NCBI GenBank assembly: GCA_963704735.1
Contig: OY969935.1
Coordinates: forward strand, 1,847,476-1,911,475
DNA: 64,000 bases
Origin: an uncultured Solirubrobacteraceae bacterium
Lineage (GTDB): Bacteria > Actinomycetota > Thermoleophilia > Solirubrobacterales > Solirubrobacteraceae
Direction of reading: 5' to 3'
The translations under genes were made by a program, and so were the position numbers. This document shows, piece after piece, positions 1,756 to 13,760 of this stretch (within the stretch, counting starts at the first letter, position 1; the number at the start of each line of letters is the position of its first letter). The notes under the pieces were generated by a model, which saw nothing but the letters and a program-made list of their open reading frames with translations, was not told the DNA's origin and did not search any database.

Positions 1756-2616
1756 TCAGCCCGCGTAGCGCAGAGCGACGCGCTCCGCCGCAGCTCGGTA
1801 GGAGCCGCCGAACAGCAGCGCGTGCACGAGCAGCGGAAGCAGCTGGTAGAGCTCCACTCGATCCTCCCAGCCGTCGGCCAGCGGGGCGACCTCCTGATAG
1901 GCCGAGAACACCCGGTCTGACGGCGCCCCGAACAGCCTCAGCATGGCGAGGTCCACCTCGCGGTGGCCGCCATACGCCGAGGGATCGATCAGCCAAGGAC
2001 GGCCGTCCCCGTCCGCCATCACGTTGCCGGCCCACAGATCGCCGTGCAGCCGCGCGGGGGGCTCGGCAGGACCGGTGAGCCCTGAGATCCGCTCGCACAC
2101 CCCCTCCAGCGCGCGGATCGCGGATGGCGGCAGCGCGCCTCTGCGGCGCGCGATCTCCGCCAGTGGATGCAGGCGCCGCTCGGCGTAGAACGTGGACCAG
2201 TCGGCGGCGGTCTCGTTCGACAGCCGCAGCGATCCGAAGCCGAACGCCGAGCCCGTGCCGGGCTCACCCAGCCCACCGAACCTCGGCGCACCCGCGAGGT
2301 GGGTCGTGGCGAGGCCATGGCCTAGCGCCTCCAGGCCGCGTGCGTCCAGGCGTCCGGGCGCGATCCACTCCAGGGCGAGGTAGCGATCACCGACGTCAAG
2401 CACACGCGGCGTGCGCACGGCCCCCGGCTCGGCGAGCCAGCGAAGCCCCGCAGCCTCGGCCTCGTACTCGCCCGCGGCAGCGTCGGCGCGGGTCTTCACG
2501 AACGCCTCGCTACCGTCGACGAGCACCACGTGGAACGCATCGTTGATGTCTCCCCCGCCGACCGCCCGGACATCGCTGACGCCGGCGGGGAGGCTGATGG
2601 AGGCCGGAAGGCTCAC
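1756..2616 (-). CDS. Fructosamine kinase family protein
   Basis: GGGDIN, FVK, EAAGL-WL, LHGDLWAGN, IDPS-YGGHREVDLAML. Confidence 0.93.
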   Translation of the reverse strand: MSLPASISLPAGVSDVRAVGGGDINDAFHVVLVDGSEAFVKTRADAAAGEYEAEAAGLRWLAEPGAVRTPRVLDVGDRYLALEWIAPGRLDARGLEALGHGLATTHLAGAPRFGGLGEPGTGSAFGFGSLRLSNETAADWSTFYAERRLHPLAEIARRRGALPPSAIRALEGVCERISGLTGPAEPPARLHGDLWAGNVMADGDGRPWLIDPSAYGGHREVDLAMLRLFGAPSDRVFSAYQEVAPLADGWEDRVELYQLLPLLVHALLFGGSYRAAAERVALRYAG

Positions 2617-3095
2617 GCGAGCTCACCGGCGCGAATGCGCGCGAGCAGCCCGGTGCAGGCCGCCTGCACGAGATCGAGCACTTCATCAAAGCCGTCCGGA
2701 CCCCCGTAATAGGGATCGGGCACCTCCGGGGCCACCTCGGCGGCGCTCAGCGGGTCGAACTCGCGTAGCAGCCTCACCTTCGCCCGCTGCTCCTCGCTGC
2801 GCGCCAGTTGCCGAAGCTCGCGCTCATTCGCACGGTCCATCGCAATCACGAGATCAAAATCATCGAGATCGTCTCGCGAGAGGAGACGGGCGGAGCCATC
2901 GAGCGCGATCCCGCGGGCCCGCGCGGCGGCACGGGCCCGTGCGTCGGGCTGGCTGCCGACGTGCCAGCCCCCCGTGCCAGCGGAGTCGACCTCGATCGAC
3001 TCCTCGAGGCCCGCCTCGCGCACGAGCGAGCGCATCACGCCCTCGGCGGTCGGCGATCTGCAGATGTTGCCCAGACAGACGAACAGCACGCGCAT
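2613..3095 (-). CDS. ptpA: Low-molecular-weight protein-tyrosine phosphatase
   Basis: VCLGNICRSP P-loop, DSAGT, DPYYG. Confidence 0.93.
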   Translation of the reverse strand: MRVLFVCLGNICRSPTAEGVMRSLVREAGLEESIEVDSAGTGGWHVGSQPDARARAAARARGIALDGSARLLSRDDLDDFDLVIAMDRANERELRQLARSEEQRAKVRLLREFDPLSAAEVAPEVPDPYYGGPDGFDEVLDLVQAACTGLLARIRAGELA

Positions 3096-3147: not shown

Positions 3148-4977
<1,830 letters not shown>

Positions 4978-5011
4978 GGGCTGCTACAGCGTAGAAGGCG
5001 CGCCGACCCGC

Positions 5012-5017
5012 TAGCCT
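5012..5017 (+). promoter_or_regulatory. Putative -10 element (TAGCCT) for the candidate ncRNA, divergent from the lepA -10 (TACGCT, 4988-4993, minus)
   Basis: TANNNT hexamer just upstream of the 5' closing stem of the structured element. Confidence 0.45.
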
Positions 5018-5021
5018 TGAT

Positions 5022-5180
5022 GGTCCGGCGGATCGCCAACTCGACGTGGACCCTTCGGGGCCCAGCCGCGGCAACGCGCCGGCTCACGAGCCGGCGGCCT
5101 GTCCAGGTGTCGGGAGTGTCACGCCGCCCAGGCAAAGACACAAGTCCTGGGACGTTAGTAGTAAGCGGCGATCTCTGACC
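5022..5180 (+). ncRNA. Candidate structured ncRNA, family unassigned
   Basis: 5'/3' closing helix 5022-5037/5167-5180; second helix 5039-5047/5152-5159; cUUCGg and GCAA tetraloops; perfect 3-way junction; possible kissing loop GUGUC/GACAC; followed by a strong hairpin. Confidence 0.6.
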
Positions 5181-5182
5181 GG

Positions 5183-5217
5183 GCGGCATCGGGCGGGCTT
5201 ATGGCTCGCCCGGCCGC
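5183..5217. terminator. Strong GC hairpin between the candidate ncRNA and the murJ 3' end
   Basis: gcggc-at-cgggcgggc-ttatg-gctcgcccg-gccgc; no U-tract. Confidence 0.45.
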
Positions 5218-5286
5218 ATGCCCGGGCCGACGGGCCACCGGCGCGAGCCCGTTGCGGTCTCACACGGGCGCGCGCGGCGGAGGCGC

Positions 5287-7035
5287 TCACGCCCGCCCGA
5301 GCTGCGTGCGAATCAGACGGCTCACCTGGTGGGCCTCGGGCACGCGCATCGCCAGCACGGCCCGCATGTAGACCAGCACACCCGCCAGCCCGGCCGCTCC
5401 GACGCTGACGATCTGGGCGATGAGGGAACCACCCAGCAGGGCGTCGAGACCCCGCCAGACAAGCCACGAGACGCCGGCCAAGAGCGCCGAGGCGAGCAGG
5501 ATGCGCGCCGTGATCATGGTCGTCTGGGCGCCCTCGAGTCGCCCGTTGAAGCCGATCCTCAGACGATGGAACTGGAGCGCGGTCATCACCGCGTTGGCCG
5601 CGACGGTCCCGATGATCAGACCGGCGATCCCCAGCGGCTTGTACAGGCCGATCGACACGATGATGTCGACGATGATGTTCAGCGCCGCCAGCCGGGTGGG
5701 GATCCACGGGCGCTGCACCGAGAAGAACACGCGCGTGAGCAGCAGGTTCAGCCCGCCAAACGGAAGGCTGAGGGCAAACCAGAACAGCGCTTCAGAGACG
5801 AGGTCGGTTGACCGTGCGTTGAAGTTGCCGCGTTCGAATACCAGCCGCACGATCGGGGTCGTCAGCACGAGGATGAACACGGCCGACGGGATCAGCAGCA
5901 GGTTGATCTGGCGCATGCCGATCCCGATCGTGCGGCGCATGCCGCCGACCTCCCTGCGGGCGGCCATCCGGCTGAGCGTCGGAAAGAGCACGGTTGCCAC
6001 GGCGACACTGAACAGGCCCTGCGGCAGCATGTAGATGCGGAAGGCATTGTCGATCGCCCGCGGCGCTTCGTCGGAGACGAGCGTGCCGAACACCGAGTTG
6101 ATCAGCTGGTCCAGGTTGACGATGCCCAGGCCGATGGTCACCGGCAGCATCAGACCGAACACCTGCCGGATGCGCGGGTCGTGCCAGTCGATCGAGAACT
6201 GAAGGCGGAAGTCGATCCGCGCGAGCGCCCCGAAGACCATCAGCATCTGCACGAACGTCGCGATCAGGATCGCGATCGCGTACGCGTACAGCTGGTCGCC
6301 GTTTTCGTAGCCGCCCTGAAAGTGCGGGCGCAGCACGATGAGCAGCACGATGATCACGAGGTTCCACACGGCCGGGGAGATCGCCGGGATCGTGAAGTGT
6401 TCGTAGGACTGCAGCACCCCGACGAGCAGGCCGATCAGCCCGAGCAGCAGCACGACCGGGAACAGCACCTGCGAGAGCCCCACCGTGAGAGCGTCGAGCG
6501 GCGCATTGAAGGTCGGGCCCGTGAACAGCGGCATGATCACGCCGGCGGCGAGCACGAAGAACGCGGTCACCGCGCCGAGGGCGATCAACATGATCCAGAA
6601 GAGCGTCGACGCCAGCCGGAACGCCTCTTTGCGCTTGCCCTGCTGGAGCAGATCGGTGAACACCGGCACGAACGCCGCCGACAGTGCCGCGTTCGCGAAC
6701 AGGTTGCTCACCAGGTTCGGGATCTGGAACGCGAGCGTGAACGCCGACGCCGGACCGCCCGTGCCGAAGAAGCTCGCGGCGACGATCTCGCGCACCAGCC
6801 CCAGCAGCCTGGACAGACCGGTCGCCAGGGAGAAAATCGCGGTGTTGCGCGCCACCCGCCCTCCCCCACCGGCGCCCCGGCCTTCGCCGCCGCCGTCGCC
6901 GCGAGCCGGCTGCTCCGGCCTGGCGAGAACGCCGTATTCCTCCCCGAAGCTCCCATCCGGGACCCCAATGACCTCACCGGACGGATCCAACGGCGGCCCT
7001 CCGGGCGGTTCGTCGGCTCCCGAAATCGCGGACAA
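5287..7035 (-). CDS. murJ: Lipid II flippase MurJ/MviN
   Basis: SRLLGLVRE, AF-IPN, AAFVP, YMLPQGLF. Start placed at TTG 7035, 7 nt after -10 TACTAT; the ORF-track start at 7080 overlaps rpsT. Confidence 0.95.
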   Translation of the reverse strand: MSAISGADEPPGGPPLDPSGEVIGVPDGSFGEEYGVLARPEQPARGDGGGEGRGAGGGGRVARNTAIFSLATGLSRLLGLVREIVAASFFGTGGPASAFTLAFQIPNLVSNLFANAALSAAFVPVFTDLLQQGKRKEAFRLASTLFWIMLIALGAVTAFFVLAAGVIMPLFTGPTFNAPLDALTVGLSQVLFPVVLLLGLIGLLVGVLQSYEHFTIPAISPAVWNLVIIVLLIVLRPHFQGGYENGDQLYAYAIAILIATFVQMLMVFGALARIDFRLQFSIDWHDPRIRQVFGLMLPVTIGLGIVNLDQLINSVFGTLVSDEAPRAIDNAFRIYMLPQGLFSVAVATVLFPTLSRMAARREVGGMRRTIGIGMRQINLLLIPSAVFILVLTTPIVRLVFERGNFNARSTDLVSEALFWFALSLPFGGLNLLLTRVFFSVQRPWIPTRLAALNIIVDIIVSIGLYKPLGIAGLIIGTVAANAVMTALQFHRLRIGFNGRLEGAQTTMITARILLASALLAGVSWLVWRGLDALLGGSLIAQIVSVGAAGLAGVLVYMRAVLAMRVPEAHQVSRLIRTQLGRA

Positions 7036-7061
7036 GGCCGCTATAGTACGGCGCTCCAACG

Positions 7062-7328
7062 ATGGCCAACATCCACTCACAGAAGAAGCGCATCCTGCGC
7101 TCCGAGCGCGAGCGCATCGAGAATCGCAAGTACACCTCGGCGATCAAGACCTACTTCCGCCACCTCGAAGCCGCCGTGCGCAGCGGTGACGCGCCGGCCG
7201 CCGGCGCCGAGCACGTCCGCCTGCAGCGGACGATCGACAAGGCCGTCAAGCGCGGCGCCCTGCACCGCAACACCGGCGCGCACAAGAAGTCCCGCGCCGC
7301 CCGCCTGCTCGCCGGCGTCTCCGGCTAG
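7062..7328 (+). CDS. rpsT: 30S ribosomal protein S20
   Basis: MANIHSQKKR...IDKAVKRGALHRN...KKSR. Confidence 0.98.
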   Translation: MANIHSQKKRILRSERERIENRKYTSAIKTYFRHLEAAVRSGDAPAAGAEHVRLQRTIDKAVKRGALHRNTGAHKKSRAARLLAGVSG

Positions 7329-8413
7329 GAGGCGACCGTCTCGATCGCCCGCAGCGCGAGCGTGTCCTCCTGCAGCCCCGCGAGCATCGAGCGATTACAG
7401 GCGAGCACGGCCCCGCCACGCGAGTCGAGCTCGAGGTCGGCGAGCGAGCACAGCGCCCGGCGCAGCCGGTCGGGCTCGGTGCGGGCCACCTCGGCGAGGA
7501 ACCGCTCCGCCGCGCGTGCGGGCATCCGCAGCCCCCGCCGGACCTCGGCGAGCGACTCGCCGGCCTGCAGGCGCAGGGCGATCGCCAGCGCCTCGCGCAG
7601 CCGCTGAGCCATCCCGTAGGTCAATCCCGACAGCCGCTCGCCCTGCTGGCGAAGGCGCAGATAGGACAGCGTCGCCTCGCCTGCGTCGCCGGCCAGGAGC
7701 GCGTCGGCCAGCGCGAAGGCGCGCCACTGCGCCGAATGGGCGAGGACGCGGTCGATCTCCTCGACGCCAACCTCCCTGAGCCCAGCACCCGAGCCCTCGG
7801 GCGCCTCGCCGTCCGGGATGGGGCCGAGGGGGTCGGTGCTCAGCGCGAGCTTCTCGAGCTCTCGCAGCAGCCGCTGCTGGCGCCCTCCGACCTGCTCCAC
7901 GAGCGCCTTCGCCGCCATGCCGTCCAGCGAGATGCCCAAGCGCGCCGCCTGCTCGCGCACCCACCCGGCCAGCTCCCACGGCTTCACCGTCGCCTGGCAG
8001 ACGACCTGCCCGCCGGCCCGCCTCACGGCCTCGTGCACGGCCGCCGGCGCCTTGGCGCGAGCGTCCTCCCGCGCGAACAGCGCGAGCGTCGTATCCGGCG
8101 GCATATCTCGCATCGCTCCGGCCAGATGCGTCTCCACGTCGGACTGGCGCCAGCGCTCCACGCCTTCAACGAGGATGACCCGACCCAGCCCGGCGGGCGC
8201 CCCCGCCCCCATCTCCGCGCCGCCGGTCGCCAGCGTCATCGTCGCGAGCGCCCCCGCCACCGCCCGCGGACTGCCCGCCTCTCCCTCGAGCAACTCCACG
8301 CTGCCGGCGCCGCCGCCCTGCTGCTCTGCCAGCGCGCGCAGCCCCGCCCTGCGCTCGGCGATCGCCCCGTGGTCATCGCCGTGAATCAGGTAGACGGGCT
8401 TGAGCGTGGCCAT
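7325..8413 (-). CDS. holA: DNA polymerase III delta subunit
   Basis: KPVYLIHGDD, ELEKLAL, F-LADA; convergent with rpsT as usual. Confidence 0.88.
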   Translation of the reverse strand: MATLKPVYLIHGDDHGAIAERRAGLRALAEQQGGGAGSVELLEGEAGSPRAVAGALATMTLATGGAEMGAGAPAGLGRVILVEGVERWRQSDVETHLAGAMRDMPPDTTLALFAREDARAKAPAAVHEAVRRAGGQVVCQATVKPWELAGWVREQAARLGISLDGMAAKALVEQVGGRQQRLLRELEKLALSTDPLGPIPDGEAPEGSGAGLREVGVEEIDRVLAHSAQWRAFALADALLAGDAGEATLSYLRLRQQGERLSGLTYGMAQRLREALAIALRLQAGESLAEVRRGLRMPARAAERFLAEVARTEPDRLRRALCSLADLELDSRGGAVLACNRSMLAGLQEDTLALRAIETVAS

Positions 8414-13687: not shown

Positions 13688-13760
13688 GGGGCTATAGCTC
13701 AGCTGGGAGAGCGTCGCGCTGGCAGCGCGAAGGTCGTCGGTTCGAGCCCGACTAGCTCCA
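13688..13760 (+). tRNA. tRNA-Ala (anticodon GGC)
   Basis: GGGGCTA/TAGCTCC-A acceptor stem with G3:U70; D-arm AGCTCAGCTGGGAGAGC; anticodon arm TCGCG-CT-GGC-AG-CGCGA; GGTTCGAG T-loop; 3' CCA tail not encoded; upstream -10 TAAACT at 13663. Confidence 0.98.

Follow-up and report, generated by a model that had tools for sequence, protein, structure and literature searches.

Evidence for a stand-alone gene encoding a structured RNA, probably of a new class, in Solirubrobacteraceae

A predicted RNA gene between lepA and murJ

The stretch of DNA analysed here (the window, 64,000 nucleotides of contig OY969935.1 from an uncultured Solirubrobacteraceae bacterium) contains a 309-nt gap (4978-5286) between lepA (3148-4977, - strand) and murJ (5287-7080, - strand), as a preliminary description made from the sequence had noted. 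That description proposed that the gap holds an independent non-coding RNA (ncRNA) with its own promoter, read on the strand opposite to both neighbours and unlikely to be a lepA leader. Covariation, a conserved -10 box, a downstream hairpin and the occurrence of the same element at unrelated loci in other genera all bear this out, and positions 5012-5217 of the + strand are well supported, on comparative sequence grounds, as a stand-alone, single-copy gene for a structured ncRNA. The gene, its strand, its fold, the modular make-up of its core and its independence from the genes beside it come directly out of the comparison with relatives. The predicted RNA consists of a core of ~160 nt followed by a 35-nt terminator hairpin. 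It probably represents a new class, as first suggested, since no Rfam family matches it; it is undescribed in Rfam 15 and in the literature searched, where queries for ncRNAs in Solirubrobacterales, Conexibacter and Thermoleophilia returned no description of such an RNA.

The search for known families used all 4,227 covariance models of Rfam 15, run on the whole window at gathering thresholds and on the region around the gap (4950-5320, 371 nt) at E<=10. At gathering thresholds the sole match in the window was a tRNA (13688-13760, + strand). The permissive scan of the gap returned only noise at E>1 (mir-H2, gammaretrovirus signal, P13, Hammerhead_II and sul1), and no relevant match at the gap to raiA, 6S, Ms1, a riboswitch or any other Rfam 15 family. 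The signal recognition particle (SRP) RNA, RNase P RNA and transfer-messenger RNA (tmRNA) are all located elsewhere in the genome, so the element is none of these.

Fold, pseudoknot and transcription signals

The fold was derived from alignments of 20 and 48 sequences, using RNAalifold and inspection. It runs in the order P1, then P2 enclosing P3 and a P4 arm that carries P5, then the S1 strand, the S2 hairpin whose loop pairs with S1, and a linker leading back to P1 (Table 1). Among the 48 sequences from the same genus, 92.7% of the cells in proposed helices pair, versus 25-53% when the partners are slid out of register, and double changes are found in 14 pairs versus 7.3 in shuffles, a value as high as the observed one being reached in 0 of 500. 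A cross-genus alignment of 100 distinct sequences fitted to the model gives a similar picture: 95.7% of the proposed pairs are standard and 34 of 49 are double-changed (19.0 in shuffles, the observed value reached in 0 of 500), with every pair of P3, P4 and P5 covarying. The same helices, P1 to P5, are recovered by a mutual-information scan that is model-free. It is this covariation that makes the case for the RNA, and not energy: compared with shuffles, single-sequence folding gives z = -1.68 on the + strand and z = -2.98 on the - strand. Single-sequence folding does not discriminate in DNA of 70% GC, so the near-complete folding by eye that was originally remarked on is no evidence, and on the + strand it is no better than shuffles.

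Several of the helices first drawn by eye are recovered in the comparative fold. The closing helix is real, with its coordinates redrawn as those of P1 (13 pairs); the cUUCGg hairpin is P3, which covaries and differs in length among copies; the gccggcu-cacg-agccggc hairpin is P5; and the hairpin at 5127-5151 is S2. Others had to be abandoned. The helix ACU-C-GACGU/ACGUUAGU is only 49.7% paired in relatives, and its 5' strand pairs with GUCGGG (5109-5114) instead. What looked like a perfect three-way junction fails at its gcg-GCAA-cgc mini-hairpin and gcc/ggc closure, which pair in 77-79% of cells and are disrupted throughout entire lineages, while a hairpin at 5106-5125 (83.5% paired) is impossible in minimal variants of the RNA and draws on bases that are part of P4 and P2. 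Taken jointly, these extra helices pair in 66.3% of cells (49.7-83.5% each) versus 86-99% for the P and S helices, and their place is taken by P2, P4 and the conserved internal loop between P4 and P5.

Sequence conservation is centred on junctions and on the pseudoknot, where GAGUGU, CCAGG, ACAC and CCUGGGRC are invariant; the hairpin tips, loop L1 and the middle of the linker are variable. No Watson-Crick partner for the linker was detected in the mutual-information scan. The central G.A of P4 in this genome is replaced by G-C, G-U or U-A in others. In the P4/P5 internal loop, C5072.U5102 changes to U.C in a non-Watson-Crick covariation (79 versus 13 sequences in the same scan), which hints at a structured internal-loop motif; A5074 and U5102 also switch together. 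The differences in helix length among copies are not multiples of three, and the element is therefore non-coding.

The complementarity of GUGUC and GACAC, originally read as a possible kissing loop, stands as S1, but in another arrangement. With the hairpin at 5106-5125 gone, GUGUC is a junction strand and not a hairpin loop, and its pairing with the loop of S2 makes an H-type pseudoknot. A pattern fixing the S1 and S2 sequences had served to retrieve 80 of the 100 cross-genus sequences, and the pseudoknot was therefore judged only on copies found by the search model, from which S2 had been left out. In S1, U-A takes the place of C-G in some members of this genus and, once more, in minimal variants; other genera have U.G and G.U variants. 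In S2, A-U is replaced by C-G at three loci (L060, L062 and L063) and G-C by C-G at L070, while L233 has gained a seventh pair, C-G. With several independent compensatory events in each, S1 and S2 form an H-type pseudoknot. A nested alternative offered by RNAalifold, a GCC/GGC hairpin inside S1 together with a small GUC-CUGG-GAC hairpin, was rejected in its favour because the A-U to C-G and G-C to C-G changes fall exactly at S2. The copy with the latter change (L070:1501-1716, representing one genus) also carries a ~70-nt hairpin insert between the 3' strands of S1 and S2.

Within the helices, G-U cells outnumber A-C cells by 311:46 and 140:20 (~7:1), and the RNA therefore reads on the + strand, the orientation first proposed. 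The hexamer TAGCCT, picked out at the start as a -10 element, fares equally well: among 104 copies from across genera, 103 have a TANNNT box that begins 8-12 nt upstream of the first model position (exactly 10 nt in 84), even though the surrounding upstream DNA is unalignable across genera, and the lone copy without it is a decayed duplicate (L125, see below). A simple promoter scan of this region of the window called no sigma-70 -35/-10 pair. Judged by its spacing from the -10 box, the transcript would start at ~5023-5025, at the foot of P1. The strong hairpin reported after the core is also present, and a GC-rich hairpin of 9-14 bp directly follows P1 in all 34 genus representatives folded, with a sequence that varies. 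It is trailed by a T-rich tail in some genera; this genome has none, and a simple terminator scan called nothing at 5183-5217, where there is no T run. Together, the TANNNT box at fixed distance and the hairpin after P1 mark the element, as far as sequence signals go, as a transcription unit of its own.

Table 1. Predicted elements of the RNA gene in window coordinates, with minimal forms found at other loci
Feature	Position	Strand	Pairing and remarks
-10 hexamer TAGCCT	5012..5017	+	TANNNT type, preceded by GC; TANNNT kept upstream in homologues
P1 closing stem, 5' strand	5025..5037	+	pairs with 5167-5182; 13 pairs, 8 compensatory, 98.5% paired
P2 5' strand CUCGAC	5040..5045	+	pairs with 5109-5114 GUCGGG; 6 pairs, 5 double-changed, 98.8% paired; RNAalifold
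P3 variable hairpin, UUCG loop	5048..5063	+	6/6 pairs double-changed; from 3 bp up to a branched 35-nt insert
P4 5' strand CCGCGG	5066..5071	+	one bulged C; pairs with 5103-5107 CCAGG; 5/5 pairs double-changed
P4/P5 internal loop, 5' side CAACG	5072..5076	+	faces 5097-5102 GCCUGU; nearly invariant
P5 hairpin CGCCGGCU-CACG-AGCCGGCG	5077..5096	+	8/8 pairs compensatory (double-changed), 96.1% paired; top mutual-information pairs
P4 3' strand CCAGG	5103..5107	+	partner of P4 5' strand
P2 3' strand GUCGGG	5109..5114	+	partner of P2 5' strand
S1 5' strand GUGUC	5116..5120	+	pairs with GACAC 5137-5141
S2 5' strand CCCAGG	5127..5132	+	pairs with CCUGGG 5146-5151
S1 3' strand GACAC, inside S2 loop	5137..5141	+	flanking loops vary in length
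S2 3' strand CCUGGG	5146..5151	+	partner of S2 5' strand
Linker ACGU..AGUAGU..AGC, pseudoknot to P1	5152..5166	+	single-stranded; ends conserved (GGGAC-GU ... CAG), middle varies between genera
P1 3' strand	5167..5182	+	partner of P1 5' strand
Terminator-like GC-rich hairpin	5183..5217	+	probably shared with convergent murJ
Minimal forms, 105-113 nt	L074:1501-1612, L075:1501-1613, L076:1501-1611, L077:1501-1608, L079:1501-1611, L238:1501-1612		

Distribution and genomic contexts

A BLASTN search with the gap matched 21 of 24 genomes of the same genus, at 77-88% identity over 5000-5217 and with the flanks unaligned; in a wider draw of the genus, 352 of 401 genomes matched (152 of 165 good-quality ones). 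The conservation among relatives on which the proposal depended was thus found together with covariation. For searches beyond the genus we used two models, R1 built from this genus and R2 from 46 diverse copies, and these find the RNA only in Solirubrobacteraceae: in 27 of 39 genomes of the family in an order-level draw, in 0 of 111 genomes from the five other families of the order, and in 0 of 139 genomes from other families of the class. An even draw of Solirubrobacteraceae gave 27 of 40 genomes and 26 of 39 genera, one of the matches counted, in the unpublished genome G815, being weak. The exact core pattern, searched in one genome per species (185,579 species), matched at least 118 stretches, and the 80 titles among the matches listed are all Solirubrobacteraceae, Solirubrobacterales, Conexibacter, Patulibacter, Paraconexibacter or unclassified actinobacterial metagenome-assembled genomes. 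Solirubrobacterales, the order guessed in the preliminary description, was the right taxon. Four viral contigs matched a loose core pattern and none of these was confirmed by the model. No copy was found in 13 of the 39 genera, and five such genomes searched again at E<=10 were still negative; the RNA is therefore either not indispensable to Solirubrobacteraceae or diverges beyond the reach of the model. Its carriers include the cultured Conexibacter arvalis DSM 23288, with the RNA at L154:1523-1693, and Patulibacter medicamentivorans I11, with the RNA at L086:481-643.

Several genera have minimal variants of ~110 nt that keep P1, P2, the pseudoknot and the linker, and in which P3 to P5 are gone and a short hairpin caps P2. 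The core of the RNA thus consists of P1, P2, pseudoknot and linker. Four of the minimal forms begin 6-33 nt beyond the end of a co-directional gene, whose 3' end therefore overlaps the -10 box. The genome of the window holds a single copy. At one locus a second copy (L125:3418-3568) lies 1.1 kb downstream of an intact one and scores 52 versus 126 bits; with no TANNNT box, a broken S2 (CCGAGG) and GGACGUA deleted, this second copy appears to be a pseudogene.

Within the genus, lepA, the element and murJ follow one another in constant order, with a spacer to the lepA ATG that varies from ~25 to 450 nt, and outside the genus neither gene ever adjoins the RNA. Approximately 125 loci represent 61 distinct contexts, and among the distinct downstream gene clusters 30 are convergent with the RNA and 14 co-directional. 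In Conexibacter arvalis the RNA lies between an aldo/keto reductase gene and a convergent alpha/beta hydrolase gene, and in Patulibacter medicamentivorans between the end of a BRCT-domain gene and an aminotransferase gene; no gene family recurs beside it across genera. These shifting contexts rule out a lepA leader and argue against a riboswitch. Convergent genes often end 35-50 nt after P1, in many unrelated contexts, and the hairpin is therefore shared with them.

The neighbourhood in the window is otherwise ordinary. Upstream of murJ lies a holA-like gene (DNA polymerase III delta, C-terminal domain; 7325-8413, - strand), and downstream of lepA, within 1756-3095 (- strand), are a low-molecular-weight phosphotyrosine phosphatase gene and a fructosamine-kinase-family gene. 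A second TANNNT box (TACGCT on the - strand, 4988-4993) lies 10 nt upstream of the lepA ATG at 4977, inside a conserved word, ACAGCGTAGA, that contains a CTAC..GTAG inverted repeat and recurs beside the lepA start in many members of the genus. The arrangement suggests that the lepA mRNA is leaderless or has a very short leader, and that the two promoters stand back to back, diverging ~20 bp apart. A second GC-rich inverted repeat occupies 5221-5275, between the terminator hairpin of the RNA and the murJ stop codon; in several relatives, unlike here, murJ ends 4-10 nt from the shared hairpin.

Relationship to known RNAs and possible function

We lean towards reading the element as the gene for a stand-alone structured ncRNA that acts in trans, its folded core binding a conserved partner. 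Transcription would be driven by a TANNNT -10 promoter of housekeeping type, would begin a few bases before P1, and would end at the GC-rich hairpin directly after P1. The RNA would then fold into P1, P2 with its optional P3/P4-P5 arm, the H-type pseudoknot of S1 and S2 and the 15-nt linker back to P1, with P1 and the terminator hairpin sealing both ends, which should stabilise it. The dozens of unrelated contexts, mostly tail-to-tail with a neighbour, indicate action in trans. Given invariant bases at the junctions and in the pseudoknot, and variable tips, L1 and linker middle, the RNA most likely works through its three-dimensional core. The partner would be a conserved cellular protein, for which RNA polymerase is a candidate, or perhaps a small ligand, and the RNA presumably does not act by base pairing to mRNA or by regulating a downstream gene.

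Several points weigh against this reading. Expression, RNA ends and abundance are all predicted from sequence signals, and partner binding is the default expectation from the pattern of conservation; the gene neighbourhood points to no partner protein or ligand. The folding energy of the single + strand sequence is not significant (z = -1.68), the terminator hairpin of this genome has no U tract, and no copy was found in about one third of the genera of the family (13 of 39).

A more specific version, in which the RNA binds RNA polymerase and has taken over growth-phase control of transcription in a family without 6S, much as Ms1 might do, is unlikely, although it has a distinct basis in distribution. 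The Rfam 6S model (RF00013) finds no match in the gap or in the genome of the window. Outside Solirubrobacteraceae it has matches in 80 of 91 genomes of the class, including all six in the sister family of the same order, and nearly all other families of the class have 6S; within Solirubrobacteraceae it has none (0 of 9; 0 of 41 genomes, from 40 genera), and a 6S model tuned on 11 sequences of the class finds nothing significant in 40 genomes of Solirubrobacteraceae. The new RNA shows the reverse distribution. It also resembles 6S and Ms1 in its comparable size (~160-200 nt), single copy, constitutive-type promoter and closing stem that seals the ends. Mycobacteria, which are not known to have 6S and carry Ms1, provide a precedent for such an RNA being found where canonical 6S is undetectable. 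The complementary distribution is a lead for a 6S-replacing role and not evidence for it: one loss and one gain on one branch are a single coincidence, not a statistic, and in 13 of 39 genera of the family neither RNA was detected.

Structure also speaks against this version, and against the suggestion in the preliminary description that the RNA is 6S/Ms1-like. A 6S RNA is rod-like: above a long closing stem lies a large central bubble, open on both sides, and then an internal stem that ends in a terminal loop. The covariation here supports a multi-branched, pseudoknotted fold instead. The junction has a 5' side of 2 nt and a pseudoknotted 3' side of 52 nt; the 5' side of any would-be bubble is thus too short for product RNA templating, and there is no template strand for such a product. 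The 6S RNAs of the sister family are ordinary and have no similarity to the new RNA. A divergent 6S was also considered by position and by sequence and rejected, as the 6S and new-RNA loci have no flanking genes in common and the sequences cannot be aligned. With no model match, no synteny and no rod-with-bubble fold, membership of the 6S/Ms1 group is not supported.

It is decidedly unlikely that the RNA is instead a base-pairing small RNA (sRNA) for which the linker (5152-5166) or loop L1 would serve as the seed for target mRNAs in trans. A lone gene at variable locations, with its own predicted promoter and terminator, and an unpaired 15-nt stretch near the 3' end would suit such a role. The linker middle and L1 vary between genera, however, while the bases that do not vary lie at helix junctions and inside the pseudoknot, and seed-type sRNAs retain far less structure than the five covarying helices and pseudoknot present here.

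A cis-acting riboswitch or attenuator, with the fold as aptamer, the next hairpin as expression platform and read-through into downstream or antisense DNA, is very unlikely. Like riboswitches with an H-type pseudoknot beside P1 (SAM-II/SAM-V, preQ1 and guanidine-III), the RNA has junction- and pseudoknot-centred conservation reminiscent of an aptamer and a terminator-type hairpin immediately after the closing P1. It is much larger than these, however, and it has neither an Rfam riboswitch match nor a recurrent co-directional gene. The downstream gene is convergent here (murJ), in Conexibacter (alpha/beta hydrolase) and in 30 of 44 distinct clusters, and no downstream gene family recurs across genera as would be expected of a cis-acting leader.

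Relationship to the raiA motif (RF03072), suggested in the preliminary description on the basis of resemblance to its core segments, has become highly improbable even in the form of a very divergent or minimal member. What the two have in common is a lifestyle. The raiA RNA is ~200 nt, lies at a single locus, is transcribed independently, has a closing P1, pseudoknots, an asymmetric internal loop and rare minimal forms, and occurs in Actinomycetota (PMC10861870, PMC12968392). By its copy count, -10 box, hairpin and mostly convergent neighbours, the new RNA likewise appears to be a single-copy, independently transcribed, non-cis-regulatory RNA, a structured bacterial ncRNA of ~200 nt with a closing P1 and, like raiA, presumably acting in trans. 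A further point in favour is that canonical raiA was not found in this class: of 151 genomes from the phylum, 56 are matched by the raiA model (gathering score 101.3 bits) with scores of 112-172 bits, a count that includes the unpublished genome G756, and none of those 56 belongs to the class, of which the set holds ten genomes.

In the 371-nt region the raiA model itself detects nothing even at E<=10, nor does it in the whole genome at E<=0.001. The raiA architecture comprises P1, P3a/P3b, P4, P5 and P6, with a pseudoknot PK1 between the apical loop of P3b and the loop between P5 and P6 inside P4, and a second, PK2, between that P5-P6 loop and the 3' linker (PMC12968392). The new RNA does not conform to this architecture or to the Rfam consensus line. 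Its helix order differs, as does its pseudoknot topology, in which the pairing is between a 5' junction strand and the loop of the hairpin that follows it. Neither does it have the ~51 highly conserved positions of raiA; only the words AAGUCCUG and GAGUGU and others of GGCAAA type are shared, in a different order. This is about what chance would give, as by our own estimate ~0.5 shared 8-mers are expected between RNAs of 165 and 209 nt. The raiA motif occurs in more than 2,500 species and the new RNA is confined to one family; their gene neighbourhoods differ, and there is no raiA or comFC gene beside the new RNA. With no model match, another architecture and word sharing at chance level, membership of the raiA family was rejected.

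It is barely credible that there is no RNA gene on the + strand and that the conservation reflects a - strand lepA leader or murJ terminator, or promoter and operator sites in the DNA: although single-sequence folding slightly favours the - strand, both neighbours lie on it and the -10-like box of lepA stands beside the element, the ~7:1 excess of G-U pairs (which would be A-C on the - strand), the variable spacer to the lepA ATG and the loss of synteny with lepA and murJ in all other genera, where the -10 box and hairpin are kept, led us to reject it.

A stand-alone RNA acting in trans through a folded core remains our preferred reading, and would place the element in notable company. To date, large and intricately folded RNAs of bacteria that are rich in invariant bases have proved to be ribozymes, riboswitches or the cores of ribonucleoproteins, so that each new class is a candidate for new biochemistry. 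The compact core of ~110 nt suits structural work, and the cultured strains make testing possible at once. It is tempting to speculate that a structurally unprecedented RNA-polymerase-binding regulator replaced 6S at the root of Solirubrobacteraceae. We consider this improbable; if true, it would be, after Ms1, the second independent substitution of 6S in Actinomycetota, by way of a pseudoknotted junction and not a mimic of the open promoter. The RNA biology of Solirubrobacteraceae, a family of abundant soil actinobacteria, is almost unrecorded, and the apparent absence of 6S from the family raises the question of how transcription is controlled there as cells enter stationary phase, to which the new RNA may be part of the answer.

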